Part shown: piece after piece, positions 3,587 through 54,480 of the stretch | How the letters are laid out: every line of letters starts with the position of its first letter | Numbering within the stretch: the stretch's first letter is position 1 | From: an uncultured bacterium | GTDB taxonomy: Bacteria; Actinomycetota; Acidimicrobiia; Spongiisociales; ZC4RG35 | DNA length: 64,000 nt | NCBI GenBank assembly: GCA_963785075.1 | Contig: CAWATW010000004.1 | Coordinates: 571,001-635,000 of the forward strand | Direction: 5' to 3' | The notes under the pieces: generated by a model | The model's input: the letters and a program-made list of their open reading frames with translations, nothing else | The model's database searches: none | What the model was told of the DNA's origin: nothing | Made by a program: the position numbers and the translations under genes

Positions 3587-3659
3587 GGTGTTCTCCCATT
3601 CTCAAAGGGCGCGGACAATCACATGTCCACATGCGGGCGGAATCGTCCAGGACCGGGCG

Positions 3660-3815
3660 GTCCTGCCCACCTCGTCGGGGCTTCTGTCGCCGGAGTCACC
3701 TCCGGGTTTTGGTCCCTGACGTCACGACCGTGGGAAGCCGGGAAGGTACCCGCCGAATAGTTCGATGACCTTCCTCCTCGTCACCTGAGCGGTGCTCAGG
3801 TCTGGCGCTGTGTCG
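3660..3815 (-). ncRNA. glmS ribozyme (GlcN6P-activated riboswitch)
   Basis: Minus strand reads AGCGCCAGACCTGAGC-ACC-GCTCAGGT-GACGAGG-AGGAAGGTCATCGAACTATTCGGCGGGTACCTTCCCGG...AAAACCCGGAGGTGACTCCGGCGACAGA, matching the glmS core (AGCGCC, GACGAGG, ATCGAA...TCGGCGG, GGTGAC) and lying directly 5' of glmS. Confidence 0.9.
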
Positions 3816-3835
3816 ATTGTCGATTCCGCCGTTGT

Positions 3836-5185
3836 TCAGTCGTTCGATTCCTCCTCTCCCAATTCCGCCGTCACGACTGCGGCGATCTCGTCAGCGTAGC
3901 GGTGAGCGAGCTCCTCGGAAGATGCTTCCACCATCACCCGCACCAGAGGTTCGGTGCCGGAAGCACGTACGAGCACCCGACCGTCGTCTCCGAGAGCCGA
4001 TTCGGTGTCGGCTACCGCGGCCCAGACCGCGGCGCACCCTTCGAGGCCGTCGCGGTCGGCAACCTTGATATTCAGAAGCACCTGTGGGTATTCGACCATG
4101 GCCTCCGCACGCAGGTCCCGCAGCTGACGGCCGGTGCCCGCCATCACCTCGAGCAACCTGATCCCGCTGAGAAGCCCATCGCCGGTCCGCGCCCGGTCGA
4201 GAAAGATGACATGACCGGACTGCTCGCCACCGAGCACCGCCCGATGCTCACGCATCGCCTCCATCACGTAACGATCGCCGACCTTGGTCTGGACGAGCGT
4301 GATCCCGGCCTCGGTGAGAGCCTTTCGAAATCCCAGGTTGGACATGACGGTTGCGACGACAGTGTCGTTCGAGAGCTTGCCGATGGCCTTCCAGTGGCGA
4401 GCGATGATCGCCATGACCACATCTCCGTTGGCGATCACGCCATCTTCGTCGACGGCGATCATCCGGTCGGCGTCGCCGTCGAACGCAAATCCCACGCGAC
4501 CCCGGACCTGCGCCGCCAAGGCCGCCGGGTGGGTCGCCCCACATCCCTCGTTGATGTTCATTCCGGACGGCTCGGCGAACGCCACGTCGACGTTGGCCTT
4601 GAGACGTTGGAAGAGCGTAGGCGCCGCCCGGTACGCAGCACCGTTGGCGCAGTCGAGAAGCAGGTCGATCCCATTGAACGAGTACGAGGCTCCGGCCACC
4701 ATTTCGCCGACGTACCGGTCCAGCGCATGATCGTCCCAGAATCTGGTTCCGACGTTCGCCCCGAACGGAACGGTCCGAGAGCCGCTGGACCGGAGCCTCG
4801 CTTCGATCCGATCCTCTTCGGAGTCTTTGAGTTTTCCGCCGGAGGCGCCGAGCAGCTTGATCCCGTTGTCGGGAGCCGGGTTGTGCGACGCGCTCACCAC
4901 GGCGCCCATCTCGGCCTCGGAGCGGGCAGTGAGGAGACTGATGCCGCCCGAAGGCATCACGCCCACGTCGATCGTGTCGACCCCGGCCGAGTGAAAACCT
5001 GCCTGGAGGGCTGCGGACAGCATCTCACCAGAGCGTCGGGTGTCGCGACCGACCAGCACGGATCCCCCGGAAAGGAGAGACCCGGCGGCTCGCCCGATAG
5101 ACAGGGCGAACTCCGGGGTCAGCTCCACGTTGGCGACACCTCGAACACCGTCGGTGCCGAAGAGACGTACGCCGTCTTTCAACAT
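3836..5185 (-). CDS. glmM: Phosphoglucosamine mutase
   Basis: LFGTDGVRG, SASHNP active site, DGDADR, GGEQSGH. Confidence 0.97.
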   Translation of the reverse strand: MLKDGVRLFGTDGVRGVANVELTPEFALSIGRAAGSLLSGGSVLVGRDTRRSGEMLSAALQAGFHSAGVDTIDVGVMPSGGISLLTARSEAEMGAVVSASHNPAPDNGIKLLGASGGKLKDSEEDRIEARLRSSGSRTVPFGANVGTRFWDDHALDRYVGEMVAGASYSFNGIDLLLDCANGAAYRAAPTLFQRLKANVDVAFAEPSGMNINEGCGATHPAALAAQVRGRVGFAFDGDADRMIAVDEDGVIANGDVVMAIIARHWKAIGKLSNDTVVATVMSNLGFRKALTEAGITLVQTKVGDRYVMEAMREHRAVLGGEQSGHVIFLDRARTGDGLLSGIRLLEVMAGTGRQLRDLRAEAMVEYPQVLLNIKVADRDGLEGCAAVWAAVADTESALGDDGRVLVRASGTEPLVRVMVEASSEELAHRYADEIAAVVTAELGEEESND

Positions 5186-17076: not shown

Positions 17077-17150
17077 AGTCTCCAGTCTCCAGTCTCCAGT
17101 CTCCAGCCAGACCCCGCCGTGCCGGCGACTGGTGACCGGTGACCGGTGAC
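17077..17150. repeat. Inverted heptamer-array pair at the secY-adk junction
   Basis: (CAGTCTC)x4...GGCGACTGG(TGACCGG)x2 TGAC. Confidence 0.85.
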
Positions 17151-17167
17151 GAGCGAGCGAAGCGAGC

Positions 17168-18493
17168 TCATGTGAGGAACCCTTCGTAGTTCCGCATCGT
17201 CAGCTGGCTCTCGATCTGCTTCATCGTTTCGAGCGCCACGCCGACGACGATCAGGATCGACACGCCCGAGAAACTGATGTTGATGCCCCAGATGAGCCCG
17301 GCGAGGATCGGAGCAATGGAGATGAAGGCCAGGAACAGCGATCCGGGGAGCGTGATCCGGTTCAGGATGTGACTCAGGTACCCGGCGGTCTGCTTGCCAG
17401 GTCGTTGACCGGGAATGAACCCTCCCTGTCGCTGGATCATGTCGGCCTGCCGCACGGGATCGAACTGGATGGCGGTGTAGAAGTACGTGAAGAACACCAC
17501 GAGCCCGAACAGGATCAGCACGTACCACCAGCTGATGGCTCCCCCGGCCCCGCCACCGAGGTTGCGGTCGACCCAGTTCCGAATGCTCGTCATCCACAGC
17601 CCGTCGCTGGGAATGGCGGTGGCGAGCAGGGCTGGGAAGAGCATCACCGAGGTCGCAAAGATCACAGGGATCACGCCGGCGGTGTTGACCTTCAGCGGGA
17701 TGTAGGTGGCGTTGCCGCCCATCATCCGTCGACCGCGGACGCGCTTCGCGAACTGGATCGGTATCCGGCGCTGGCCCTGATCGATGAAGATGATGGCGGC
17801 GATCATCAGCAGGAAGACCAGCATGATCACCGCAAAACCGACGTAATTCTGGTTGCCGGCGGTCTGAAGCCAGATCTGACCGAACACCGATGGGAACTGG
17901 CTGAGGATCGACAGGAAGATCAGCAGCGACATGCCGTTGCCCACGCCGCGTTGGGTGATCAATTCCCCGAGCCACATGACGAAGGCCGTACCGGCCGTCA
18001 TCGTGAGCACGATCAAACCGACGTTCCACCACACATAGTTCGGGATGAACACGATGCCATTGGTCAGGGTGCTCCCCCGTCCGAACGCCCAGGTGAACCC
18101 GGTCGACTGGATGAGGGCAAGGACCACCGTCAGATAGCGGGTCCACTGCGTGATGACTTTCTGGCCGGATTGGCCCTCCTCCTGGAGTGCCTGGAGCTTG
18201 GGGATCACCACCGTCAGCAACTGCATGATGATGGATGCCGTGATGTACGGCAGGATTCCCAACGCGAACACGGAGAACTGTTCGAGCGCACCACCGGAAA
18301 AGAGGTTGAGGAGTCCATAGATTCCTCCTTGCTCGTTCAGGTTGGCGAACTGCTCGATCGCCTGGAGGTCGGTGCCCGGCACGGGAATGTTGGCTCCCAG
18401 CCGGTACACGGCGAACATCGCCAGCGTGAAGAGGATCTTCTTGCGAAGATCCGGTATGGCGAACATGTGTCGATAGATCGACAGAACACTCAT
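17168..18493 (-). CDS. secY: Preprotein translocase SecY
   Basis: FALGILPYITASII, GNGMSLLIF, IPLKVNTAGVIPVIFA, GGFIPG. Confidence 0.98.
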   Translation of the reverse strand: MSVLSIYRHMFAIPDLRKKILFTLAMFAVYRLGANIPVPGTDLQAIEQFANLNEQGGIYGLLNLFSGGALEQFSVFALGILPYITASIIMQLLTVVIPKLQALQEEGQSGQKVITQWTRYLTVVLALIQSTGFTWAFGRGSTLTNGIVFIPNYVWWNVGLIVLTMTAGTAFVMWLGELITQRGVGNGMSLLIFLSILSQFPSVFGQIWLQTAGNQNYVGFAVIMLVFLLMIAAIIFIDQGQRRIPIQFAKRVRGRRMMGGNATYIPLKVNTAGVIPVIFATSVMLFPALLATAIPSDGLWMTSIRNWVDRNLGGGAGGAISWWYVLILFGLVVFFTYFYTAIQFDPVRQADMIQRQGGFIPGQRPGKQTAGYLSHILNRITLPGSLFLAFISIAPILAGLIWGINISFSGVSILIVVGVALETMKQIESQLTMRNYEGFLT

Positions 18494-40900: not shown

Positions 40901-41354
40901 TCAGACGGTCCGAAGTCTTGTCGGGTGTGTAGTCGAAATAGACACCCGGCGACCGGACGAGCTGGGACACGACGACACGCTCGGTGCCGTTGATGATGAA
41001 GACGCCGTTTTCGGTCATCATCGGGAAATCCCCCAGGAAGACCTGCTGCTCCTTGATCTCACCGGTCTGCTTGTTCATGAAGCGGGCGGTGACGAACAGG
41101 GGCTTGGCGAAGTTGGCGTCGCGCTCTTTGGCCTCTTCGATCGAATACGGCGGTTCGCCGAAACGATGATCGGTCAGTTCGAGTGCGAGAGTGCCCGTGA
41201 AATCCTCGATCGGGCTGATCTCTTCGAATATCTCTTTGAGTCCCTCATCGAGGAACCACGTGAACGATTCTTGTTGTACAGCAAGAAGATCGGGGAGAGG
41301 GAGGACCTCCGGGATCTTTCCAAACGAAAAGCGCTCGGCGACGCGCGACGACAA
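37980..41354 (-). CDS. rpoB: RNA polymerase subunit beta
   Basis: [39 protein letters not shown]. Confidence 0.99.
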
Positions 41355-41509
41355 GGGAGCCTCCTTGGAGTCCAGACAACCAGAAAGGGCACACTACCAG
41401 GACTGGCAATGCCTCGCAAATGCGTGCACCGCAACACACACCCCTTCGCTTGGTGCACCTGTTCGGTTGTCTGCCGAAGTCGCTCGCAACGAGCACCACG
41501 ACTCGCTGC

Positions 41510-41539
41510 ATCCTACGCCGAAGTGCCCGAAGGTGTCAA
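41510..41539 (-). promoter_or_regulatory. sigmaA-type promoter of rpoBC
   Basis: TTGACA-N18-TAGGAT, about 155 nt upstream of rpoB. Confidence 0.7.
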
Positions 41540-41573
41540 CGGTTCTCGCGACCCAACCGGTCACCGGTCCCCA

Positions 41574-41750
41574 GCGTCGTGCGTCGTGCGTCATGCGTCG
41601 TGCGTCATGCGTCGTGCGTCATGCGTCGTGCGTCGTGCGTCGTGCGTCGTGCGTCGTGCGTCGTGCGTCGTGCGTTGTGCGTCGTGCGACGTGCGCCATG
41701 CGTCATGCGTCATGCGTCATGCGTCATGCGTCGTGCGTTGTGCGTCATGC
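41574..41750. repeat. Tandem heptamer array (TGCGTC[G/A]), about 25 copies
   Basis: About 177 bp of near-perfect 7-mer periodicity. Confidence 0.95.
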
Positions 41751-41760
41751 GCGGCCGAGC

Positions 41761-42118
41761 ACGCGAACCACGGCTTCACCGTGCATCGTGGCCAGAAGCC
41801 GCCCAACCCCAGCACACCCGCCGTCAGCACGGCACTCGGGGGTCTGGGGATTGCCCCCCAGACATCATCAACCCGCCCAACCCGCGAACCACGGCTTGCC
41901 GATGCATCGTGACCTGACGCCGCCCGATCCGGAGACACCCGCCATCAGGACGGCACTCGGGGGTCTGGGGGTCGCCCCAGTGGGGCTCGCTTTGCTCGCC
42001 CCGTCTCGGGTCTCCGGTCTCCAGTCTCCAGTCTCCAGTCTGGTGACAACGCGAACCACGGCTTCACCGTGGATCCTGACCTGAAGCCGCCCGAACCGGA
42101 AACACCCGCCATCAGGAC
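41761..42118 (+). repeat. ~115-bp REP/MITE-like repeat, units 1-3 (unit 3 interrupted by IS3), with a (CCAGTCT)n array at about 42002-42040
   Basis: Shared CGCGAACCACGGCTT...GCCGCCC...ACACCCGCC(G/A)TCAG(C/G)ACGGCACTCGGGGGTCTGGGG...CCCCAG. Confidence 0.88.
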
Positions 42119-42430
42119 TGGCCTTCCCCCCGGTTGCCTGACACCGTTCTTACGCGGCTTGGTCGTGTGTCTTGGTTTGACGGTACTGGTCCTCCCATCC
42201 GATCGGGGTCTGGTAGCCGAGGCTGGAGTGGAGCCGTCGGGTGTTGTATCGGTTGATCCAGGCGAAGATCGCCCGACGGGCCTCGGCTCGTGTCGTGAAG
42301 CTGATGCGCGAGACGAGTTCTCGTTTGAGGGTCCCGAACCAGGCTTCGGCCACGGCGTTATCCCAGCACACCCCGGTCCGTCCCACCGACTGGACCATCC
42401 CGGCCTGGTCCAAGACGGCGGCTGTCTCTC
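42119..42430 (-). mobile_element. Partial IS3-family copy (312-bp right end), tandem duplicate of 42431-42742
   Basis: Both copies begin TGGCCTTCCCCCGGTTGCCTGACACC and appear identical through GCTGTCTCTC. Confidence 0.9.
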
Positions 42431-42461
42431 TGGCCTTCCCCCCGGTTGCCTGACACCGTTC

Positions 42462-43357
42462 TTACGCGGCTTGGTCGTGTGTCTTGGTTTGACGGTACTG
42501 GTCCTCCCATCCGATCGGGGTCTGGTAGCCGAGGCTGGAGTGGAGCCGTCGGGTGTTGTATCGGTTGATCCAGGCGAAGATCGCCCGACGGGCCTCGGCT
42601 CGTGTCGTGAAGCTGATGCGCGAGACGAGTTCTCGTTTGAGGGTCCCGAACCAGGCTTCGGCCACGGCGTTATCCCAGCACACCCCGGTCCGTCCCACCG
42701 ACTGGACCATCCCGGCCTGGTCCAAGACGGCGGCTGTCTCTCCTGCCAGGTATTGGGATCCACGATCCGAATGCAAGATGATCCCTTCCACGTCGCCGGC
42801 TCGGATCCCGACGGCCATGTCTATCGCCGACGTGACCAGACTGGCTCGCATGTGGTCGGCCATTGAGTAGCCGAGCAGCCGTCTCGAGCCGATGTCCACG
42901 ACGGAGGCCAGATACAGCCAGCCTTCCCAGGTCGGGATGTAGGTGATGTCCGAACACCACGCCCAATCCGGGGCGCCCGGGGTGAACCGGCGGGCCACCA
43001 GGTCGGGGACCTTGGGACGCTCCTCTGTCGAGACCGTGGTCCGCACGAACCGCTTCTTCGGGATCCCCACGATGCCATGTTCCCGCATGAGCCGTTCCAC
43101 CCGCTTGTGGTTCACGTCCCAGCCTGGTTCCCCAGCTCCACGATCATCCTGGGCGACCCCACCGTGTCGTCTTCCCGATGGATCTCCCGCATCGTCTCGA
43201 CCAACCGAACCTCCGCCAGTTCGGTGGTGGTCGGCCCGGCCGCCACCCGGGTCTTCCACTCGTAGAAGGCTTGGCGGGACACCCCCGCCACTCGACACGC
43301 CTGCCTGGTCGGGAATCCATCGGCCTTCCGGGCAGCCACCCACCGATAGCGGGTCAC
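42462..43357 (-). pseudogene. IS3 OrfB integrase-core transposase, frameshifted near 43120
   Basis: WCSDITY, HSDRGSQY, DNAVAEAW DDE motifs; the N-terminal part (43112-43357) is in another frame. Confidence 0.85.
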
Positions 43358-43659
43358 TGTCCCGACTCCTTCACCCAGAAGGCCGTCGCTCGTTTGAGTA
43401 GGTCTCGTTCCATCCGCAACCGGGCGTTCTCCCGGCGCAGCTCGGCCAACTCCGCCCTCTCAGACGTCGTCAACCCCTCGCGCTCGCCCCGATCGATCCG
43501 GGCCTGCTTAACCCAGTTCCCCAGCGACGTCTCCCCGATCCCAAGACTCCGGGCCACGTCGGCGATTGACCTGCCCTCATCGAGCACCATCGCCACCGCG
43601 TCCTTCTTGAACTCGGGAGAGAACGATCGCCGTCTCCTCACCGGCTGATCCTCAGTCAT
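43354..43659 (-). CDS. IS3 OrfA (HTH) transposase
   Basis: RRSFSPEFKKDAV..SIADVARSLGI..LRRENARLRMERDLLKRATAF; GTGA overlap with orfB. Confidence 0.9.
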   Translation of the reverse strand: MTEDQPVRRRRSFSPEFKKDAVAMVLDEGRSIADVARSLGIGETSLGNWVKQARIDRGEREGLTTSERAELAELRRENARLRMERDLLKRATAFWVKESGQ

Positions 43660-43749
43660 GATCCCCATCATCTACCACCTCTCTATCGAGGTGTCCGGTC
43701 AATGGGGGGAGGCCCAGGGGTCTGAGGGTCGCCCCCAGTTGTGGCTTCG

Positions 43750-44761
43750 AGCTGCGGATTCCGAAGGTGCGGGAGGGTGCGGTCTTCCCGTCGTTGTTGG
43801 AACCTCGCCGTCGGGTGGATCGGGCGTTGTGGGCGGTGATCATGACCGCCTACGTGACCGGCACCTCAACGAGGAAGGTCGACGACCTGGTCAAAGCACT
43901 CGGAGTGGACTCGGGGATCTCCAAGTCGACCGTGTCGAGGATCTGTGAACAGCTCGACGAGGAGGTGGCAGCGTTCCTGGATCGGAGCCTGGATCACATC
44001 GCCTTCCCGTATGTGTTCGTTGACGCCACCTACCTGCACGGCCGCAAAGACCACCGGGTCGTCTCTCGGGCGGTGGTGGTGGCCACCGGTGTCGCCGCTG
44101 ACGGCAACCGAGAAGTCCTCGATCTGGACGTCGGGGACACCGAAGACGAGGTGTTCTGGACCACCTCTCTGCGCCGACTCCGCAAACGAGGACTGTCAGG
44201 GGTGGTGTTGGTGATCTCTGACGCTCACACGGGTTGAAAGCAGCCATCCGCAAGACCATGTCCGGATGCAGCTGGCAGAGGTGCAGAGTGCATTTCATGC
44301 GCAACCTGCTGTCCAGGGTTCCCAAGGGTCACGCCGAGATGGTGGCCGCCACCGTCAGAACCATTTTCGCTCAACCCGACCCGGCATCGACCCGGGACCA
44401 CCTGCGGCTCGTCGCCGACATGCTCAGAGAACGCCACCCCGCCGTCTCCGACCTGCTGTTGGAGGCCGAGGCAGACGTCACTGCCTACGCCGGATTCCCA
44501 CCATCGCATTGGAAGAAGGTGTGGTCGACCAACCCGCTCGAACGGCTCATGCGAGAAATCAAACGCAGAGCAGACGTGGTCGGGATCTTCCCCGACGACA
44601 ACTCCATCCTCCGCCTCGTCGGAGCCGTCCTCTCAGAACAACACGATGAGTGGCAGGTCACCGACCGCCGATACCTGTCCGAAGAATCAATGGCACTCAT
44701 CGGAACCATGCACCAAACTCACACCGACAAGGAGGTGAACCAACTCCCCGCCACCGGATAG
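43750..44761 (+). pseudogene. IS256-family transposase, 5'-truncated and frameshifted near 44234
   Basis: VFVDATY, VISDAH, WQRCRVHF, STNPLERLMREIKRR, IFPD. Confidence 0.9.
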
Positions 44762-44819
44762 GCGGGACAACGCTGAGGGTTCACCTACTTACACCACGCC
44801 GCTCAGTGTGATGATTCCT

Positions 44820-44990
44820 CGGGTCAGCGCGATGCTGATGATCGTGTTGCTGGCTCGCTCAACCACTCCATGCCCTTCGGTGGCCTGGTCCCGTCTTGCG
44901 GCCAGCAGCACGATGTGGACCGGCCGGCGTGGCTTGATAGGAGCGTGGCGTCGCCCCCACTGAGGTGTGCCCACCGACCGGTCCTGTCAC
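44820..44990 (+). ncRNA. Predicted IS110 bridge RNA
   Basis: 5' hairpin 44824-44838; stem 44841-44858/44898-44914 enclosing target guides; stem 44917-44933/44969-44984 enclosing donor guides; guides match the element junctions. Confidence 0.8.
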
Positions 44991-45015
44991 CGTTCAACAG
45001 AAGGGCAACAGGACC

Positions 45016-46064
45016 ATGATCATGCTTGGTATCGATGCGCACAAGCGCACCCATACCGTGGTCGCTGTCGACCACCTTGGCCGTCAGCTCGGCTCGAGAC
45101 CACGACTGCGACCACCACTGCGGAGCATCTGGCGATCATCCGTTGGGCCGACCAGTTCGGCGCCGAGCGCTGTTGGGCGGTCGAGGACTGTCGGCACCTG
45201 TCTCGTCGGCTTGAACGCGACATGCTCGCAGCGGGGGAACGGATCGTGCGGGTGCCACCCAAGCTGATGGCACACTCACGCGACTCGGTCCGTACCTACG
45301 GCAAGTCCGATCCGATCGACGCCCTCGCCGTTGCACGGGCCGCGCTCCGCGAACCGGACCTCCCGACAGCCCATGTCAACAATCAGGCTCGCGAGCTTCG
45401 ACTGCTCGTCGATCACCGAGAAGACCTGGTAGCGGAACGGACCAGGCACATCAACCGGCTCCGCTGGCACCTCCATGACATCGACCCCACATGGGAACCA
45501 GACCTGCGTGCGCTCACCACGTTCAAGCACCTCGACATCGCCGCCGGCAGGCTCGCCGGGCTCGACAGCGTGATCGCTCGCATCGCAGCCGATCTCGTCA
45601 TTCGTATCCGCCAACTCACCATCGACATCAACAACATGCGCGCCGAACTCGAAACCCGAACCAAGACCACAGCACCGAATCTGCGCCGCATCCACGGCGT
45701 GGGACCTCTGGCCGCCGCGAAACTGATCGGCGAGGTCGCCGGTATCGAACGCTTCAAATCCCGCCACGCATTCGCCCGTCACAACGGCACCGCCCCGACA
45801 CCGGTCTGGTCTGGCAACACCGACCGTCAACGGCTCAGCCGCGCCGGGAACCGACAACTCAACGCCGCCATCCACCGGATCGCACTCACCCAGGCCCGAT
45901 CACACCCAGACGCCATCGCCCTTCTCGCCCGAAGAACCGATGCTGGCGCCACCCGCAAAGAGGCGCTCCGATCACTGAAACGGCGACTCTCCGATGTCGT
46001 GTTCCGAGCCATGCTCGCCGACGCTGCGCTCACCCAACACCACGCCACCCCACACGCCGCTTGA
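45016..46064 (+). pseudogene. IS110 DEDD recombinase/transposase, frameshift near 45095
   Basis: MIMLGIDAHK (first frame), WAVED, KSDPIDA, GVGPLAAA, APTPVWSG, GNRQLNAAIH. Confidence 0.88.
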
Positions 46065-46267
46065 CATAGGAGAGAGGGGACGTTCCCCGCGTCGGTCGTA
46101 GCGATCGGAGCAAGGGCGAATCGAAGGCGGCTGGATCCGTCACGAAGCCGCGACGAGCGCGTTGCAGAGCCGAGCAAGCGTCGGTGATCCGGCTGGCCCG
46201 TCAGGCGTACGTCGGCTGACGGGGTGGTCCCGAGAGGTCTCTGCAAGACGTGTGGCAGGCTGGGTGC

Positions 46268-46500
46268 GTGCGGCTCACGATCATCGGCTCCAACCTGCCC
46301 GGCCGCGCCTTCTGTCGACCCGATGGCACCCCGATGGACAACGTCCACGTCAAGTACAAGTCCGGTGCGGGCCATCCCATCTCGTCCCCGCCGACACCGC
46401 CCAGGCGAAGTGGGAAGTCGAGGTCGACGTCTTCGATCGTGACGGCAACGAACGACTTCCGCGGCCCCGCCGTGCAGGGCCAGCCAGGGGAGCGCGATCC
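46268..46500 (+). pseudogene. Degenerate DUF5990-like fragment
   Basis: RLTIIGSNLPGR..NVHV / VQVR..VPADTAQAKW / DFRGPAVQG spread over frames; family call is from memory. Confidence 0.45.
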
Positions 46501-46512
46501 GGGACAGGCGAG

Positions 46513-46746
46513 ATGCTCAATCCTCGAGAGGTGGAGATCCTGAGCGAGATCGCAGGCGGCAGTTCTCGACGCGAGGCAGCCCGCTCCCTTCACCTCTCCA
46601 TGAACACGGTCAAGTCCTACCTGAGGACCGCATACCGCAAGCTGGGTGCGACCGACCGCTCAGAAGCCTTGCGCCGAGCGCGCGAGCTCGGCATCGTCAC
46701 CCCTTGCCAACCATTCTTTCGAATCGCAAGCCTCCCCAGAACCTGA
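46513..46746 (+). CDS. Stand-alone LuxR-type HTH domain (possibly a remnant)
   Basis: LNPREVEILSEIAGG..AARSLHLSMNTVKSYLRTAYRKLG..R.EA. Confidence 0.75.
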   Translation: MLNPREVEILSEIAGGSSRREAARSLHLSMNTVKSYLRTAYRKLGATDRSEALRRARELGIVTPCQPFFRIASLPRT

Positions 46747-46982
46747 GCTGCGGCGAGACCCCTCCCAAGCGAACCCGAACCTGTCGTCCTCGATAGGACC
46801 AAGACGGGTGACGTCGCCACGTCGCAGCTCACCCGCGACGATACCGCCCGCAGCACCTTCTGAGTCGACGGAGGCGAGCCCGGCAGCCAATAGCGTCGAA
46901 CTCGTCGCTGGAGGCGAGACAATGAAGACGTAGGATTCATCAGGCATCGGACGGCAACCGGCCGTGGCGAGCTCTATCACCT

Positions 46983-47234
46983 CTACCGGCGGCCGCGACG
47001 GCGCACGACCCCGATCCCGAACCAGACCAGTGCGCCCACCAACGCCGTCGTGAGCGTCATGACCCAGACCGGCGAAGACAGGTCCCAGAAGAGAAGTTTC
47101 ACGGTCACCCGCCCGGTGTTCTGGAACATGAAGACGACGAGCAACACCAGCCCGGAAAGCGCAGCGATGGCCCCAGCGCTCATCCGGGCGGTGTCTTCGC
47201 TGCCCTGCTGTGCAGTGACCTGATCTTGTGGCAT
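46983..47234 (-). CDS. LapA/DUF1049-like small two-TM membrane protein
   Basis: LLVVFMFQNT..VTVKLLFW...second TM, basic tail. Confidence 0.7.
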   Translation of the reverse strand: MPQDQVTAQQGSEDTARMSAGAIAALSGLVLLVVFMFQNTGRVTVKLLFWDLSSPVWVMTLTTALVGALVWFGIGVVRRRGRR

Positions 47235-47509
47235 GTGCGGGTCCTATCAGTCGGGCAGGTCGGCGTGGGTGTGGTTGACGACCACGGGTTAGCGCTTGAC
47301 CGGCGTCAGGTCGGACACCTGGAGCATAGCTTGCGGATGTCCCACTGCGAGCCTGCAAGCGGGGTGAATCTCGCTCTCACCCCAGGGGAAGATCTGCGGC
47401 ACCGCTCGGAGCGGGTGCCGGCTCGCTCGGCCAAAGGTGAGGTCTCTCGGCGTACGAAGGGCCGATGCCAGGAACCCTAGTGCGTCGACGGCCTGGACTA
47501 CGCCACCGT

Positions 47510-47805
47510 TGGAGTTGACCCCGGTTTGGTGGACAGTTTGATGTTCCCCCGGTTCGGTGGATTCGGGATAGTTGAATCTGGTGTGCTCTGACCCACGAGG
47601 AGGGTCCGAACATGCCGAAGAGATATCCGTCGGAGTTCCGTCGTAGGGTCCTTGACCTGATCGCTGCCGGGAGGCCGGTGGCATCGGTCGCCGACGACCT
47701 CGGGGTGTCCGCACAGGCATCTACCACTGGCGGAGACAGGACGCCATCGACCGGGGCGAGGTGGCGGGGCTGAGCAGCGGAGAGCAGGCCGAGTTGAGGG
47801 CGGCT
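47510..47805 (+). mobile_element. Remnant of a second IS3-family left end and orfA
   Basis: TGGAGTTGACCCCGGTTTGGTGGACA IR-like end; ATG 47612 gives MPKRYPSEFRRRVLDLI..VASVADDLGVS / IYHWRRQDAIDRGE. Confidence 0.75.
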
Positions 47806-48461
47806 CTCGCCATCGGTCACACGCTGCTCGGATGGAACCGGTTCATCAGCTCTGGCATGGTCACCATCAGCCTGTTCGCCGGAGCGTCCACCGGGGCGAT
47901 GGCAGTTCGGGCGATGTTCGGCACCGCCGGCATTCCCGTTTCGGAGCGGCCGCCGGCGCTCGTGCAGTGGCTGTTCCTCGTCCTGTTGATGGTCGGTCTG
48001 GCCGTCGTGTTCCAGGTGTCGCCCCGGCAAGCGCCATGGGCCATCACCGCCGGGCTGCTTGCGTACGGCGGTCTCGAAGTCGGCGGCCGAGCAGGCGTCT
48101 GGCAGGGCCCGTTTCTCGGAGCGCTCGCCCTCGGCTGTTCGCCGGGCTGTTCGTTCGACTCCGAGCCCGCACGAGCCCGCTCATCGTGGTCCTCCCAGGG
48201 ATCTTGATCCTGGTCCCCGGTGTCGCCGCCTACGCATCGTTGCGGGCACTCGACTCTGGTCCCACCACAGGCGTAACTGGTTCCGTCGAGGGGGTCGTCT
48301 TTCAGATCTTTGCCATTCTCGCCGGTCTGTACGTCGCCGGCTCGGTGATGGCCCTCCCCGGTATCAAGCTCGAACCGGCAGTGCCGGCCGCAAACGAGTG
48401 CTTCGTCATCGCCCCAGGGCCGAGCAGCGCGCGTTTCCGTCACACCCCTGCGATTGAATGA
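47806..48461 (+). pseudogene. C-terminal fragment of a ThrE-family threonine/serine exporter
   Basis: Hydrophobic helices, LAVVFQV..WA, IVVLPGILILVPG..AY; 5' end replaced by the IS3 remnant, with an internal frameshift. Confidence 0.65.
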
Positions 48462-48494
48462 GGAGGTCTCGACCACGAAGGAGAGGAGGACACG

Positions 48495-49277
48495 ATGATT
48501 ATGTTGCCGCTCTACCTTCTCTGCCTTGCGCTCGAGCTGGTCCACGTCCTCGCCCGGTTCCTCGTGGCGTACGGGATCGCCCGGGCATTAGGAGTTGGCG
48601 AGGACCCCGCCGCCTGGATTGCCGGCGTAGTCGCCTTCCTGCCGCGGCTCCGCTCTTTGACTACCTACTTCTTCCCGCTGCCCGGAGGTTGGGGCTTGCT
48701 CTGGGAACTCGGTGCTCGCCGGCCGAGCCCTTGCGAGAAGGAGACCGTGAAGCCGGTGCTGGATGAGCTCCGCCGGCGAGGCGCCAAGACCCCGGTCACA
48801 TGGTTCGTGATCGACGACCCCCTTTCCGAACGCCCAGACGCTCCGAAGAACGATCTACATCAACAGCGGAATGATCGGCCATCCATCACTGGATGCAACC
48901 CTTGCGCACGAGTGCGGTCACATTGCCACCCGCATCGGCGACCGGCTGCTCGCCCTGGTCCGTCTCAAGTTCCCGGGCTTCGATTGCTCCGGATCTATCT
49001 CGAAACCGAAGGATGGCCGATCACAGCGAAGAACGCACGAGTCATCTCGGGCGGCGCCTCCTGGGAGTTGCCAATCATACGGTCACTCTGGGCGGCCTAT
49101 CTGCGTCGAGCTGAACATGCCGCGGACCGATACGCCAAGAAGCTCGGCTACTCCTACGAGTTGGTCGAGTATCTCGACGTGTACGAACGATCGCTCGACG
49201 GGGCGAGTCCTTTCCGCCGAGGTCGCTCGCACCCTTACGCCGAGCAGCGGATCGGGCGGCTGATGCGCGAACCCTGA
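48495..49277 (+). pseudogene. M48 (HtpX-like) metalloprotease, internally frameshifted
   Basis: TLAHECGH (HExxH) lies in an alternative frame at about 48900, while EHAADRYA and SHP..EQRI lie in the main frame. Confidence 0.65.
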
Positions 49278-49302
49278 TTGACTGACGAGCGTTGGCCTGC
49301 AA

Positions 49303-49932
49303 TCAGTCGCTGACCAGCGATCTGGAGAGCCGGTAGATGTAGATGCCAACGCCAGCAACGGACACCAGGAAGGCCGAGACCATCGCCCAGCGCCATGGAG
49401 CGGACAGTTCAGTCCATCGCATTGCCATGACGATGACCGGAAACGCGATTCCCGCGAGAACGACCCCTGAGCGGGGCTTGGCGAGCTTGCGAAGCAAGGC
49501 CTCGGCCACTGATTCGAACATCGGCTCGACCTCCAATCCGGCTGCTCGAAGATCCTCGGCTGTTCGGGCCGCATGTTCTCCATCGTGAAGGTCGCGGATG
49601 GCTACTTCGTTGGCGCTAACCCAAGCTAGAAAGACATCCGCGAACTGTTGGCGTTCCTTGCGACTCGCTCCGTGTTGAATCTGATCTGCCAGCTCGTTGG
49701 CCTCTCGAACCCCATCGTCGCAGTAGAGGCGCGCTGCGGATTCCAGGAAATCGCCCAGATCCCAACCAGCGCGACGGCTTACCAAATCACGGTGGTGGGC
49801 CTTGACCGACTTGAGCTGATCGTCTATCTCAGCGACACGCTGAACAAGACTCGCCCGCTCGGACGCCATGCTGACGAGTCGGGCAACAAGAAGCCCGCCG
49901 ACGATCGCAACGATTGCGGCCGAGGACTGCAC
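49303..49932 (-). CDS. Hypothetical membrane-anchored coiled-coil protein
   Basis: N-terminal TM, coiled coil, two C-terminal TM helices; start uncertain. Confidence 0.55.
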   Translation of the reverse strand: MQSSAAIVAIVGGLLVARLVSMASERASLVQRVAEIDDQLKSVKAHHRDLVSRRAGWDLGDFLESAARLYCDDGVREANELADQIQHGASRKERQQFADVFLAWVSANEVAIRDLHDGEHAARTAEDLRAAGLEVEPMFESVAEALLRKLAKPRSGVVLAGIAFPVIVMAMRWTELSAPWRWAMVSAFLVSVAGVGIYIYRLSRSLVSD

Positions 49933-50100
49933 GATGGTGGAGGGGAGCCATTTGGGTCACTCGCTGCCAGAATCTCAATCGCCATAGGAGGAGACTAGGA
50001 GCTCCGGTCACGATCTGTCTGGCGGCTGACTTCGTCCGCTCAACCTCGGGGCGTCGATACCAACGATCGGACGCTTTGTAGGAGGCGGCCGGTCTCGGCG

Positions 50101-51876
50101 CTAGCGCGAAAGAGCCTGACAGATGATTCCTGCAACCGAGGCGATGGTCGAGGCTACGGAGTCGTAGATCGTGTCCACGGCATCGTCGAAGCCGCCGACG
50201 GTTCCCATTGGGTCGATTCCGAGATCTCGGACGACGTTCTCGAGTCTCGCATCCACGTTGGCGACGGCATGGCTATCAAGTTGTCGGAGGTCGTTGAGTT
50301 TGAATAGCGCCGAGATGTGCGGTGCTTCCAATCCTTCGGAAACGCGCTGAGCGACTTCGTGCTTGTCGGCAACGATGTCGAGGCCGGCCTCATCCGCAAC
50401 AACGGCGGCCTTCGTGATGAGCTCAAGCAGCTTGAGGCTGCGGTAGCCGGCCGTCTCATCAGGATCGAAGCCCATCTCGTGAACCATGGACCGAAGGTGC
50501 CGCTCTCCGAGGCGATCCACGGTGCTCTGATATATGGCACCGCATCGGTCGATGAAGGCATCCCGATTGAGTCCCGGAGGGATGTGCCTTGCGATTGCTT
50601 CGAACGGCGGATCAGACCACCAACCCCGGTATTCGAGATCACCGCGAGCCACAGCAACAACGTCGTTCGCGGTTATGCGTAGACCGAGGTCATGAGCAAG
50701 AGCCTCCAAGCACGCCCGGAGGTCGGCCCACAAATAGGCGATCGCTCGTGCTCGGGTAGCGACGTTCGGGTGATCCCAACGTCGGTCGTTGAGAGGAGGA
50801 GGCTCCACCGCGTGCTCGTGGTAGAGACGGACGATCTCGGGTCGAGTGCCCTCGTAGAGCTTCTTCAGATCGATTTGGATGAGATCCCGTCCGTAGCGCT
50901 GGCACCAGCTGACCCCCCACTGGTTCTTGTATGACGCAGCGCCGGACTCGGGGTGAATCTCAATGTCTTGCTGTCCTTCGAACCGGCCGAGAACCGTGTC
51001 TCGAACGAACACTTCAGAAGCATGGTCGGCGATGCCGGCCATCCGGGCGTCGTCTCTCGAGACTGTCCCGGCGCCTGGCCATTCGAGTTCCTGGTAGTCC
51101 CATCGTCCTTCGGTCATGGGCATGCCTCCTGGCTCGACGATCAATCGAATGCCCCAGCACTCGGCCAGGACGTCCCCATCCGTCATGCGCCGTAGCGATA
51201 CGGATCTGCCAGGTAGCTCGACATCCACCTGAGTCTCCTCCCCGAGCAGTGCAGCCACGTGGTCGTCAGGGGGCGCTGAGTCTTGAACGTAGAAGACCTG
51301 AACGACGGTTAGCCCTCGTAGAGACGCGTAGTCCTGGATGAGGCCGGCATCAGCATCAACAAAGGCCGTCCCCGGCTCGTCGAATAGGTTCGAGGTCGAA
51401 CAATCTGCGATGAGGCGGTCATAGCTCGGTTGCTCGAGGTCATCCCAATGAGCGACTTGGCCATCCGTGTACCGCGGGACCAGTCCGTAGGTCATGAGGA
51501 GGCCCTGGTCGGGGATCACTACATCCATAGCTCCCGATTCTCAACGGACCGCGAGCGGCTCGAAGTCAACGGTTCCGTCGGTGAAGACCCAGAACCGGGG
51601 CTCGTACTCTCCGATGCCTGCGAAGGGGTGAGGGCCGTTTGAGTCGGGATCGTGGCCTTTGAAGCCCAGGGTCTCGCTGAGCCGAAGCGCCTCTTCCGGA
51701 TCGCCTAGCGCTGCGTAGACATGACGGTGTTCCAGCGGCTCTTCGTAGTTCTCGATAAGAGCGAGCTTCATACGACTGCCAACTACGGGCTCCTCGCTGG
51801 CGTGCCAGGCGAGTGATTCCGGCCACCACTCCGGACCGAGGCCAAGCTCATCGAAGGAATGCGTCGACATCGCCAA
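50101..51876 (-). pseudogene. ~590-aa hypothetical protein split by an in-frame TGA (51541-51543); C-terminal Rx4H HEPN-like motif
   Basis: ORFs 51541-51876 and 50101-51528 are in the same frame, four codons apart; LNDLRQLDSH near the C-terminus. Confidence 0.6.
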
Positions 51877-52192
51877 GAGGGATCTGTTGGACTCTGAGCG
51901 AGGTAGGTCTCCCGGATTCTCGCTAGCTCTGTCGGGCCTTCCGGCCGGTTCACGCGCCAGAACTCCCAGCCGTTGTTCGACTTGCCTGTCAACGTGTCGG
52001 CAGCTCCTGACAGCGTGTCGAACTCGACTCCGTTGTCAGTGCGGATCCTGCCGTCGGGCAGGACGGTCGCTCGGTATTCGACGCTCGACCTAGAGCCGGT
52101 GAGCGTCGTTCCCGGTGCCAGAAGACCAGCAGAGATCAGGTCCAACAGGCTTACGCCGAATAACGCCTGTCTCTTCTGCTGGGTGGTGTCTT
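51783..52192 (-). pseudogene. RAMA (restriction/adenine-methylase-associated) domain fragment
   Basis: SLLDLISAGLLAPG..ATVLPDGRI...FDTLSGAA...NGWEFWRV; 5' end abuts the IS110 fragment. Confidence 0.75.
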
Positions 52193-52468
52193 CACCGGTC
52201 TGGTCTGGCAACACCGACCGTCACCGGCTCAGCCGCGCCGGGAACCGACAACTCAACGCCGCCATCCACCGGATCGCACTCACCCAGGCCCGATCACACC
52301 CAGACGCCATCGCCCTTCTCGCCCGAAGAACCGATGCTGGCGCCACCCGCAAAGAGGCGCTCCGATCACTGAAACGGCGACTCTCCGATGTCGTGTTCCG
52401 AGCCATGCTCGCCGACGCTGGGCTCACCCAACACCACGCCACCCCACACGCCGCTTGACATAGGAAAG
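52193..52468 (+). mobile_element. 3' fragment of a second copy of the same IS110
   Basis: Near-identical to about 45799-46074; ends TTGACATAGGAAAG followed by AGGGGAC. Confidence 0.9.
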
Positions 52469-52482
52469 AGGGGACACGATCC

Positions 52483-52670
52483 AAGCCGCCCGATCCGGAG
52501 ACACCCGCCGTCAGCACGGCACTCGGGGGTCTGGGGGTCGCCCCCCAGACATCATCAACCCGCGAGCCACGGCTTGCCTATGCATCGTGACCTGAAGCCG
52601 CCCGATCCGGAGACACCCGCCGTCAGGACGGCACTCGGGGGTCTGGGGGTCGCCCCCCAGACATCACAGC
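52483..52670 (+). repeat. ~115-bp REP/MITE-like repeat, units 4 (partial) and 5
   Basis: Same consensus as 41761-42118. Confidence 0.88.
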
Positions 52671-52680
52671 CCCCCAGGCA

Positions 52681-53226
52681 TCAGGGAATCGAGGGCTCGA
52701 TTCGCATCACCGTGTCTTCGTTCCAGCGGGATGAGCCGGTGAACCAGAGGAAGTCGGTCTGCCAGTGGTGGTCGAAGATGACGCGAACCCCCACCCAGTC
52801 GCGGTTGGCTGCTCCGTCATTGCGGTCGGCCGCCGGCCAACCGTTCTGGATGAGATACCAGTTGTTGACGCAGGACAGGGAGACCGGGTCGGAATCTCGA
52901 ACCGTGCGGTAGCGCTGGGCTCGGCCGATTGCGCCGTTGACGTCGGACTTGTAGATCATCACCTCTACGACGTCTTCGCTCGCGATGTTCTGGAGGGCAC
53001 TGGCGGTGGCCTCGAGTATGCGACAGTCCGCGCTAGAGATGCTGCCGGCCGAGGCGGCGGCCCGCGCTCCCTCACGAGTCGAAGATGAAACCGTCATCCA
53101 ATCGCGCAGGGCGATGCCCCATTCGAAGGATCCGAGGACGAGCATGAGGAGCAGCCCGACGACCATCGCCGCTTCTATGGCTGCTGCCCCGCGTTCCGAT
53201 GGTTTTCCTGCAGTTGATCGCGACAT
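52681..53226 (-). CDS. TadE/TadG-like pseudopilin
   Basis: ERGAAAIEAAMV prepilin motif, TM segment, REGARAAA. Confidence 0.85.
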   Translation of the reverse strand: MSRSTAGKPSERGAAAIEAAMVVGLLLMLVLGSFEWGIALRDWMTVSSSTREGARAAASAGSISSADCRILEATASALQNIASEDVVEVMIYKSDVNGAIGRAQRYRTVRDSDPVSLSCVNNWYLIQNGWPAADRNDGAANRDWVGVRVIFDHHWQTDFLWFTGSSRWNEDTVMRIEPSIP

Positions 53227-53295
53227 CCGCATCCCCGTACTTGCCCCAGCGACAATGTACCCGGGCAGACGCGTGCCGCTACCCCTCCGCTGTCT

Positions 53296-54480
53296 TCAGG
53301 GCACCTCGAAGAGCCCGGCTGCTCCCATCCCGCCGCCGACGCACATCGTGACCACGGCATACCGCTCCTTGCGACGACGCGCTTCGAGCAGCGCATGTCC
53401 GACCATTCGAGCCCCGCTCATCCCGTAGGGGTGACCGATGGATATGGCGCCGCCGTTGACATTGAAGATCTCGTTGTCGATGCCGAGCTTGTCGCGGCAG
53501 TAGATGGTCTGAACTGCGAACGCCTCGTTCAGCTCCCACACACCGATGTCTTCTATCGCCAGACCTGTCCGCGCCAACAGCTTTGGAACGGCGAAGACCG
53601 GACCGATTCCCATCTCGTCGGGATCGACGCCGGCCACGACCATGCCCCGGTAGTAACCGAGTGGTGCCAGACCTCGCTTCTCGGCTTCGGAAGCTTCCAT
53701 GATCACGAGCGCGGCGGCACCGTCGGACAGTTGACTGGCGTTTCCTGCGGTGACGTTCTTGTCGTAGCCTCTGACCGGGGCAAGCTGACCGAGTCCTTCC
53801 ATGGTCGTGGAAGGTCGGTTGCCTTCGTCGAGCCGGAGCTTCACCTCTTCCGATGTGGATTCCCCCGTCTCCCGATCGACGACGACCTTGGTGGTCGTGG
53901 TCTGGATGATCTCGTCGTCGAAGACACCCCGCTCTTGCGCCGAAGCAGTGCGCTGCTGCGATTGGTACGCGTACCGGTCGCAATCCTCCCGACTCACGCC
54001 GTATCTCTCGGCGACCACCTCGGCGGTGTCGATCATGGGCATGTACATGCTCGGTTCGCGTTCGAGCACTCGAGGATCCGCTGCTCGATACATGTTCATG
54101 TTCTCGTTCTGCACGAGGCTGATGGACTCGACCCCGCCGGCGACGACCACCGGGGCGCCATCGATCATCACCTGCTTGGCGCCGGTCGCCACGGCCATGA
54201 GCCCGGAGGAACACTGACGATCGATCGTCATCCCCGACACCGAGGTCGGGAGCCCTGCAGCGATGGCGGACACCCGTGCCATGTTGATCCCCTGGGTTCC
54301 TTGTTGCATCGCGCAGCCGAGGATCACGTCGTCGACTTCTGCGGGATCGACCTTGGCACGATCGACGGCGGCGCGTATCGCCATGCCGGCGAGTGTGGGT
54401 GCCTCGGTGTCGTTGAACGCTCCCCGATAGGCCCTCCCGATCGGGGTGCGGGCGGTCGAGACGATCACGGCTTCACGCAT
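53296..54480 (-). CDS. Acetyl-CoA C-acyltransferase (thiolase)
   Basis: [28 protein letters not shown]. Confidence 0.95.

Follow-up and report, generated by a model that had tools for sequence, protein, structure and literature searches.

An IS110-group element inserted in the terminal inverted repeat of an IS256-family element, with a predicted bridge RNA that matches the interrupted site

How does an insertion sequence (IS) come to lie within the terminal inverted repeat of another one, and is such a position selected? The question is raised by a stretch of 64,000 nucleotides (the window, to which unprefixed coordinates refer) from contig CAWATW010000004.1 (positions 571,001 to 635,000) of an uncultured bacterium of the class Acidimicrobiia (assembly GCA_963785075.1). 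In this genome (4.3 Mb, 65% G+C, 11 contigs), an IS110-group element is located downstream from the remnant of an IS256-family transposase gene. The initial annotation had proposed that the IS110 element is programmed to insert into the terminal inverted repeats (IRs) of IS256 elements. The underlying observation is confirmed here with small corrections. Its best explanation, probably the right one, is that an IS110-group element carrying a bridge RNA in its left end is aimed at the IS256 IR.

The reading frame of the IS256 transposase closes with a TAG codon (44759-44761). The sequence that begins 24 nt past this stop, CTACTTACACCACGCCGC (44785-44802), ends with CACCAC GC CGC. A blastn search of the same genome detected no further copy of this IS256 element or of this IS110 element, and a loose regular expression for empty sites returned only noise in that genome. 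Since a logo of flanking sequences could not be built there, the test was made with other genomes. Intact relatives of the IS256 element were obtained by searching, at the protein level, 301 genomes from the order to which the window genome belongs. Both ends of the latter elements have the form CACCAC nC nnn GGGAC followed by 6 nt, the last of which is C, and by a target duplication of 8 to 9 bp (CCTCTGACG for locus L037 and GATTTTTT for locus L039). The right IR (IRR) of the closest intact relative (L037, 87% amino acid identity) reads CTACTTACACCACACCGC GGGAC GCCATC. The window displays CACCAC GC CGC, then the IS110 element, then GGGAC GTTCCC, with a length and a CGC triplet identical to those of the L037 IRR. 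Judging from this match to a sequence that is contiguous in intact relatives, the sequence restored by removal of the IS110 element is the right terminal IR of IS256, as initially proposed.

The two halves of the IR abut at their natural length only if positions 44803-46076 (1274 bp) are removed, which identifies this segment as the inserted one. The boundaries first assigned to it (44802-46074) pointed to the right site, but were off by 1 and 2 bases and left one extra base. In the right-hand sequence AGGGGAC, which had been taken as flank, AG is the end of IS110 and the IS256 part is limited to GGGAC. Counting from its tip, the IS256 IR is interrupted between bp 11 and bp 12. The inserted element has no terminal inverted repeats, and the target bases are not duplicated.

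Six relatives of the IS110 element were compared with it, including two genome loci (L029, 86% amino acid identity; L030, 70%) and four metagenome loci (L031 to L034, 73-85%). Junctions were defined by alignment of the ends, IS256 proteins were mapped beside them, and the left IR (IRL) of L029 was located by its motif. The left junction occurred at the same base of the inner IS256 IR in five of seven cases (window, L029, L030, L032, and L033). The right junction had the form GGG[A/G]C followed by 6 nt ending in C in all seven cases (window, window fragment, and L029 to L033). This fragment is a remnant of a second copy of the element, 99% identical to the first one, of which only 283 nt from the 3' end are present (52193-52475), the rest being deleted. 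The initial annotation had noted that AGGGGAC (52469-52475) is followed there by a different sequence, ACGATCC, which is correct, except that AG belongs to IS110 and that the copy is reduced to a 3' fragment. Its proposal of an independent second insertion is supported, as the two copies are 99% alike and located at different IS256 tips.

The IS256 gene of L032 is encoded by the opposite strand, which places IS110 in the IRL; seen from the IR, its orientation is that of the other copies. Insertions in the IRR were found in the window, in L029, in L030, and probably in L033, for which the upstream sequence is only C-terminal-like. In L029, the IS256 element retains an 8-bp duplication, GCACTCAC, outside both tips, with IS110 inside (2699-3975). 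The IS256 hosts are 46-76% identical to that of the window, and the IS110 proteins are 70-86% identical. The greater divergence of the hosts and the position of the 99% identical copies at different tips indicate repeated insertion rather than inheritance of a single composite element. Recurrence of the junction position excludes chance. The two outcomes that the initial annotation had named as contrary to its proposal, unrelated flanks at other copies and a restored sequence differing from the IR of intact IS256 elements, did not occur. A scan of viral contigs with the right-end junction pattern returned 0 matches.

A more distant case was provided by a search of PLSDB plasmids, which identified Rhodococcus elements encoding an IS110 protein about 60% identical to that of the window. 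This protein (WP_125053188.1) is encoded by NZ_CP034156 and NZ_CP088909, where it is annotated only as 'IS110 family transposase' and where its gene directly follows an annotated IS256 transposase gene. The shared block of 2633 bp extends from the IS256 left tip to 12 bp past IS110. The two composites (L082 and L111) are located within different 8-bp duplications, AACAGGCT and TGCGTCCG; NZ_CP088910 carries the same locus as NZ_CP034156. The same IS256 without IS110 is present on five plasmids with 99.8-100% identity (H29-H33). The empty site, read in L114 and L115, is ...CACCGTTAA AG AGATAGACCC followed by the duplication, and the occupied site is ...TTAA AG (CCAGTG...GGAGCT) AG AGATAGACCC. 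Thus, AG is found once in the empty site and is duplicated in the occupied site, as the published model requires of a core dinucleotide. IS110 is inserted in the IRR, 12 bp from the tip. The Rhodococcus element resembles that of the window by its left end (CCAGTGT), its right end (TTGACAGAGGAG), and its two-loop left end. It differs from it by its duplicated AG core and by its very different IS256 host, which is 25-31% identical to that of the window and has a different IR sequence. No description of the targeting of the Rhodococcus element was found in the literature searched.

Seven differences separate L082 from L111. All belong to the 1375 bp of IS256, and the 1258 bp of IS110 are identical. 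The chance of this distribution for evenly spread differences is (1375/2633)^7, or about 0.011. Since all differences are confined to the IS256 part, two separate insertions into slightly diverged IS256 copies are favored over a hop of the composite. The initial annotation had considered that the IS110 element might hitchhike on IS256. This received no support, as the Rhodococcus plasmids, the only case in which the question can be asked, point to separate insertions. A third plasmid, NZ_CP130482.1 (L113, 1040-3720), harbors the Rhodococcus-type IS110 element within IS256-IRR-like flanks, with an ISL3-family transposase gene directly upstream, an arrangement that suggests a further layer of nesting or a replacement.

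If the site is selected by an RNA, its guide should be found in the element. In the published account of IS621, target positions are numbered 1 to 7 for the left arm, 8 and 9 for the core, and 10 to 14 for the right arm (PMC11208158). The bottom strand is the partner of the left guides and the top strand that of the right guides, and the 2-nt core is included in both (PMC11208160). Two handshake bases located 3' of the right target guide pair with donor positions 6 and 7 after strand exchange (PMC11208158). An alignment of 183 nt from position 44802 with 13 relatives was analyzed by RNAalifold (14 sequences). The left end of IS110 folds into two modules, each comprising a stem, an internal loop, and a hairpin. 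The fold, derived from the same alignment on which it was scored, contains 40 pairs, both partners of which have changed in 14 cases, and the paired cells amount to 95.3%. None of 500 shuffles reached the observed values, and slid controls were 32.5-50.3% paired. As expected for a bridge RNA, one internal loop has strands matching the target and the other has strands matching the donor.

The 5' strand of loop 1, ACCACUCCAU, reads like the left half of the IS256 IR in the sense direction and ends with ACCACUCC-AU (44862-44871); the 3' strand contains GUCCC-GU-CU (44888-44896). On the uninterrupted IR, the dinucleotide AC is common to the two guide matches. The predicted target, ACCACTCC-AC-GGGAC, is the consensus of the uninterrupted IS256 IR, is present without a mismatch in the IRL of L043, and corresponds to bp 7-21 of the IR from the tip. 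In the genome of the window, the 15-mer predicted by the guides had a single match with 1 mismatch, at the start of an ordinary gene (C10:352085). At positions 6-7, the right end of IS110 reads AG, to which the handshake bases CU correspond. Together, the handshake, core, and right-arm bases matched the right junction of their own element at 7 to 8 of 9 positions in all 12 elements. The mean was 3.5 matches and the maximum 7 for 126 pairs combining a guide with the junction of another element. In fixed register, the 7-nt left-arm guide matched its own left flank at 6 to 7 of 7 positions in 9 of 14 elements. Four further elements matched after a one-base slide, as judged by eye, and L031 had no match.

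Guides and flanks changed together. In L032, both guides are modified at the first core position (CCGU and GC), and the handshake UU faces a right end reading AA GG. In L034, the guide ...CUCAUU corresponds to the flank ...CTCATC. The left guide of L034 (73% amino acid identity; 786-805, 1935-1984) is altered at two positions in a manner that suits the tip of an IS3-family element, and the contig ends before the right flank. Relatives with 50-67% amino acid identity share end motifs (T[C/G]AGTGT ... GCTTGACATAGGAG) and are inserted at other sites, with matching guides. Several of these relatives are located just upstream of ATG codons. In five of them (L066, L068, L070, L071, and L072; 53-67%), the distance to the ATG is 5-6 nt, and the GGAG of the right end of the element is placed like a ribosome-binding site. 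L066 and L078, from the same genome (G603), are two copies of one relative, one of which has an internal deletion joining the left end to the middle of the gene. At the left junction, the two copies are distinguished by two bases (…GGTCG TCG versus …GGTCG G). In loop 2, the 5' strand (44928-44946) is similar in sequence to the element's right end, and the 3' strand holds CACTGAG (44958-44964), which is complementary to the first bases of IS110. The latter strand covaries with the start of the element, TGAGT being associated with ACUCA in L070 and CCAGT with ACUGG in L082.

These data are consistent with the following mechanism. The untranslated left end (44803-45015) would encode a bridge RNA with two internal loops. 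The 5' strand of loop 1 would base-pair with the left half of the IR on its bottom strand, loop 2 would recognize the joined ends of the element, and IS110 would enter between bp 11 and 12 of the IS256 IR. Guidance by the RNA in vivo and passage through a circular intermediate are the probable steps of this scheme. The joined ends, as computed, assemble the putative promoter TTGACA-17 nt-GATGAT in the window, with the same arrangement in L029, L031, L032, and L033. Across elements, the second hexamer is GATGAT, CATGTT, CATCGT, or CACTCT. A promoter of this kind at the junction would point to a circular intermediate such as those of IS621 and ISEc21.

For the IS256 host, the insertion is likely to be deleterious. 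The published transpososome of ISCth4, which belongs to the IS256 family, shows two contact regions of the transposase on the end, bp 7-11 close to the tip and bp 14-25 farther in (PMC7780238). Since the insertion parts these two regions by 1.27 kb, the IS256 end is most likely dead for transposition, in line with the disabling suggested by the initial annotation. The selected site falls in the stretch of the IR whose binding the IS256 transposase requires. The host element could not easily mutate it away, making this a clear case of transposon-on-transposon parasitism. IS110 would gain a landing site that is present in multiple copies, dispensable, and horizontally traveling. Two branches of IS110, 60% identical, each occupy the IR of their own IS256 subfamily (25-31% amino acid identity between the latter), and one member is found at an IS3-family tip. 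It is conceivable, though we would rather doubt it at this stage, that an Actinomycetota lineage of bridge-RNA IS110 elements has specialized on the transposase-binding part of IS ends. These elements would act as hyperparasites that knock out IS256 ends, and the junctions of the window clade would provide in vivo support for a copy-out or top-strand model.

The domains encoded by the element are those of an IS110 transposase. Pfam detected DEDD_Tnp_IS110 (PF01548, E value 6e-17) and Transposase_20 (PF02371, E value 7e-18) in 45102-46064, corresponding to the RuvC-like DEDD N-terminal domain and the C-terminal Tnp domain. The NCBIfam model transpos_IS110 (NF033542) scored 150.1 bits for a cut-off of 140. 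The motifs GIDAHK, AVEDC, SDPIDA, and VWSGN of the translation were matched, by eye only, to the catalytic residues of IS621, reported as D11, E60, D102, D105, and S241 (PMC11208158). The gene is preceded by 213 non-coding nucleotides (44803-45015), and its stop codon is followed by 12 nt. No end-to-end inverted repeat was seen by eye, nor found in a repeat search with a minimum length of 60, which is insensitive to short repeats. The long upstream non-coding region and the lack of subterminal inverted repeats place the element in the IS110 group.

The host is assigned to the IS256 family by its Mutator-type DDE transposase. Pfam Transposase_mut (PF00872) matched 43767-44237 and 44234-44761 (E values of 4e-55 and 3e-42; profile positions 84-236 and 238-377), and NCBIfam NF033543 (transpos_IS256) also matched. 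IRs of about 25-30 bp with 8-9-bp target duplications are present in L029, L037, L039, L114, and L115. The IS256 remnant of the window begins at about profile position 62, its 5' part having been replaced by the IS3-family element (minus strand, 42462-43671), and only its right IR survives. A 1-base frame break is located near 44234-44237, where TT replaces an expected TTT run.

Several observations weigh against the interpretation of an RNA-guided insertion into IS256 IRs. The IS110 gene of the window is itself broken near 45096, the N-terminal 27 codons of the transposase being in one frame and the remainder in another, with the first catalytic-type D upstream of the break; intact open reading frames of 349-353 amino acids are present in five of the six aligned relatives (the five complete ones). 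The copy in the window may therefore be inert at present, judging from this break. Both frame breaks (near 44234, TTT to TT, and near 45096, AA to A) are located in short homopolymers, so that they could result from long-read assembly errors. The sample is small: its 7 left junctions and 7 right ones may represent 5-6 independent events, and all come from metagenome-assembled genomes or metagenome contigs. The left flank of L031 is unrelated and does not resemble an IR. The left junction of L034 is located at the end of an IS3-family element (HTH_Tnp_1 and rve domains; left IR matching at 18 of 20 positions), 2 nt outside its right tip (…CTCA).

The guide matches are also imperfect. Guide and flank of the window disagree at one position (CCACTCC versus CCACGCC), and the agreement of the left donor guide with the right end is limited to about 7 of 9 positions. 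Among 25 uninterrupted IR ends, the 15-mer predicted by the guides was found without a mismatch in 1, with at most 1 mismatch in 9, and with at most 2 mismatches in 19. These counts are partly circular since the ends were gathered with a regular expression that fixed GGGAC and most of CACCAC. Two of the 25 ends, and one example of a target duplication, came from L039 in an unpublished genome (G050), and nothing rests on that locus. An Rfam search of 41000-54000 yielded no RNA family match.

The core dinucleotide of the window clade raises a further difficulty. The left junction carries AC (GC in the window, TC in L034) and the right junction AG (GG in L032), without duplication of a core. The right guide opposes a G with which it cannot pair, in place of the C with which the guide base would pair. 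A core shared by donor and target and found at both junctions is present in the Rhodococcus relative and absent from the window clade. Alternative cores were considered. An AG core inside TCAGTG and inside CATAGGAG was rejected because the orthologous empty sites of L066 have 2-3 nt between the guide matches, not about 11. A CT, a CA, or a one-base-shifted core fails at one junction in each case, as judged by eye. No single-core model was found to fit the non-duplicated core of the window clade. A target core at the left and AG at the right is the pattern expected from transfer of the top strand alone, for a donor core AG and a target core AC. Top-strand or single-strand (copy-out) pathways have been proposed in preprints (10.1101/2025.10.25.684509 and 10.64898/2026.08.31.748434). 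As the independent events number about five, this agreement is a lead and not a finding; if real, the mismatch between the left and right cores bears on whether IS110 elements move by one strand or by two.

Other explanations of the nested arrangement have to be considered. A single ancient insertion might have produced an IS110-IS256 composite, which then spread by IS256 transposition or by descent. The two elements are indeed adjacent in every well-resolved case, and the Rhodococcus composites, flanked by 8-bp duplications at two sites, are also what a composite hop would generate. This explanation is nevertheless unlikely, as the element occupies the IRL in L032 and the IRR in the window, in L029, in L030, and probably in L033. 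It is also at odds with the two nearly identical copies of the window having different tips, with the IS256 hosts being more diverged than the IS110 elements, with the confinement of the seven Rhodococcus differences to the IS256 part (about 0.011), and with the match between the loop strands and the uninterrupted IR. The shortness of the guide-target matches (10 and 7 nt), and the fact that RNA guidance is read here from sequence, leave room for selection of the site by a protein or by DNA shape, such as the structure of the IS256 end or the bound IS256 transposase, with incidental RNA matches. We regard this as quite improbable, because the guides covary with the flanks in L032, in L034, and in nine relatives with other targets, because guides score far lower with junctions other than their own, and because RNA guidance has been demonstrated experimentally for IS621 (PMC11208160) and ISEc21 (PMC11187229).

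The region is a graveyard of mobile elements, with IS3, IS256, and IS110 remnants and repeat arrays, and the same genome has further cases of IS110 pieces enclosed by IS256 pieces, at different positions. The proximity of IS110 and IS256 might hence be meaningless, but chance nesting is very hard to reconcile with the same base position and the same orientation in the IR in five separate sequences besides the window. Finally, the homology that blastn detects between copies does not stop at the junctions but continues for 10-15 nt on the left and 5 nt on the right, as it would if the flanks belonged to IS110 and this element were longer, with ends that only look like IS256 IRs. There is hardly any likelihood of this, since the same flanks are contiguous in IS256 copies devoid of IS110, vary with the IS256 lineage, and are bordered on the outside by the duplication of the IS256 element in L029. 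Insertion of IS110 into the IS256 IR, probably guided by its own RNA, accounts for these observations, and programmed insertion, as initially suggested, is supported by the empty sites, by the same IR position in IRR and IRL, by the loop matches, and by the Rhodococcus sites.

The features of the locus are listed in Table 1. After the second IS256-type tip comes an incomplete unit of an array repeat of 101 nt. Tandem arrays of this repeat of about 100-120 nt are present in the window at 41757-42145 and 52483-52656. The same repeat, for which blastn found 26 matches genome-wide, also occurs at C4:565207-565830, C10:405158-406082, C10:461536-462170, C8:129267-129630, and C6:365031. Its 3' part (GGGGTCTGGGGGTCGCCCC) is similar to the terminal sequence of the adjacent IS3-family element near 43715-43745. 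Another array (41532-41776) contains about 35 copies of a 7-nt unit (GCGTCGT or GCGTCAT), with a 14-nt spacing in the repeat search. Two 300-nt segments, 100% identical and 312 nt apart (42118-42417 and 42430-42729), cover the 3' part of the IS3-family OrfB and represent either a tandem duplication or an assembly artifact. Elsewhere in the genome, other IS110-family genes or pieces are located between pieces of other IS256-family genes at C6:545118-548808 (IS110 on the minus strand, 545700-546857) and C1:15292-17843 (IS110 piece, 17139-17303). The latter IS256 genes are broken at differing profile positions, about 240-252 and about 335, and the CACCAC..GGGAC motif was not found in the 8-kb stretch of C6 around that nest.

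Table 1. Coordinates of the IS110 insertion, its predicted RNA modules, and neighboring mobile elements in the window.
Feature	Position	Strand	Basis or remarks
IS3-family element	42462-43671	minus	OrfA 43354-43671, OrfB 42462-43343; Pfam HTH_Tnp_1, rve/rve_3/rve_2/HTH_21
IS256-family transposase gene remnant	43701-44761	+	Pfam Transposase_mut, NCBIfam transpos_IS256, family scan of the same genome
Inner part of IS256 right IR, bp 12-29 from tip	44785-44802	+	Match to IRR of intact relatives, e.g. L037
IS110-group insertion sequence, 1274 bp	44803-46076	+	Ends from uninterrupted IS256 IRs and six homologous copies; Pfam
Predicted loop 1 (target-binding) module	44843-44912	+	RNAalifold, pair counts, controls; geometry as in PMC11208160 and PMC11208158; includes a basal stem
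Loop 1, 5' strand	44859-44871		Left target guide 44862-44871
Loop 1, distal hairpin	44872-44884		
Loop 1, 3' strand	44885-44897		Right target guide 44888-44892; core-pairing bases 44893-44894; handshake bases 44895-44896
Predicted donor-binding loop (loop 2)	44917-44984	+	5' strand 44928-44946; 3' strand 44956-44973
IS110 transposase gene	45016-46064	+	1-base deletion near 45096-45097; DNA alignment with six relatives
TTGACA in IS110 right end	46061-46066	+	-35 box only if the ends are joined in a circle
IS256 right IR, outer 11 bp (tip), GGGAC GTTCCC	46077-46087	+	Same form in intact IS256 relatives, L029
3' fragment of second IS110 copy, 99% identical	52193-52470	+	Repeat search, blastn, sequence
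Tip of a different IS256-type IR, GGGAC ACGATC	52471-52481	+	Tip form as in e.g. L040, GGGAC ACGACC

The system lends itself to experiment, since the guide can be read directly against its target and natural guide variants exist. The Rhodococcus relative is present in cultured soil strains beside empty copies of its target, making integration, circularization, and the consequences for IS256 transposition directly testable.

Insertion at one position and in one orientation of another mobile element, with empty sites known, is a behavior already described for IS4321/IS5075 and ISEc21; the IS256 IR is a new target. No report of an IS110 element in an IS256 IR was found in the full-text literature searched, and the supplementary target tables of PMC11187229 and PMC11208160 may list one; the preprint 10.64898/2026.08.14.744561 contained no mention of IS256. 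IS4321 and IS5075 (IS1111 group) insert into the 38-bp terminal IRs of Tn21-family transposons, according to the reference list of PMC11187229 (Partridge and Hall 2003), where the precedent invoked by the initial annotation is thus cited. Like the element of the window, they encode a DEDD transposase and occupy one fixed position and orientation in the terminal IR of another element. In contrast, they have subterminal inverted repeats, a guide RNA downstream from the gene, and a target in Tn3-family transposons, whereas the window element has no such repeats, a non-coding region upstream from its gene, and a target in the IS256 family.

ISEc21 (IS110 group) is described as targeting conserved codons of an IS3-family transposase gene without visible target duplication and as forming a circle with a junction promoter (PMC11187229). 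It shares with the window element an upstream non-coding guide RNA, a bottom-strand match located 5' of the top-strand match, and a natural target inside another IS. It differs by a target consisting of codons of a transposase gene rather than a terminal IR, and its host phylum and sequence are unrelated. The IS621 bridge recombinase, as reported in PMC11208160 and PMC11208158, resembles the window element by its two-loop RNA, guide strand pattern, 2-nt overlap, handshake bases, and DEDD and Tnp domains. Unlike the latter element, which has an IS256 IR as target with AC (GC, TC) at the left and AG at the right, IS621 targets repetitive extragenic palindromic (REP) sequences with a CT core identical in donor and target. 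The terminal IRs of the IS256 family thus join the short list of mobile-element landing sites of the RNA-guided IS110/IS1111 elements.

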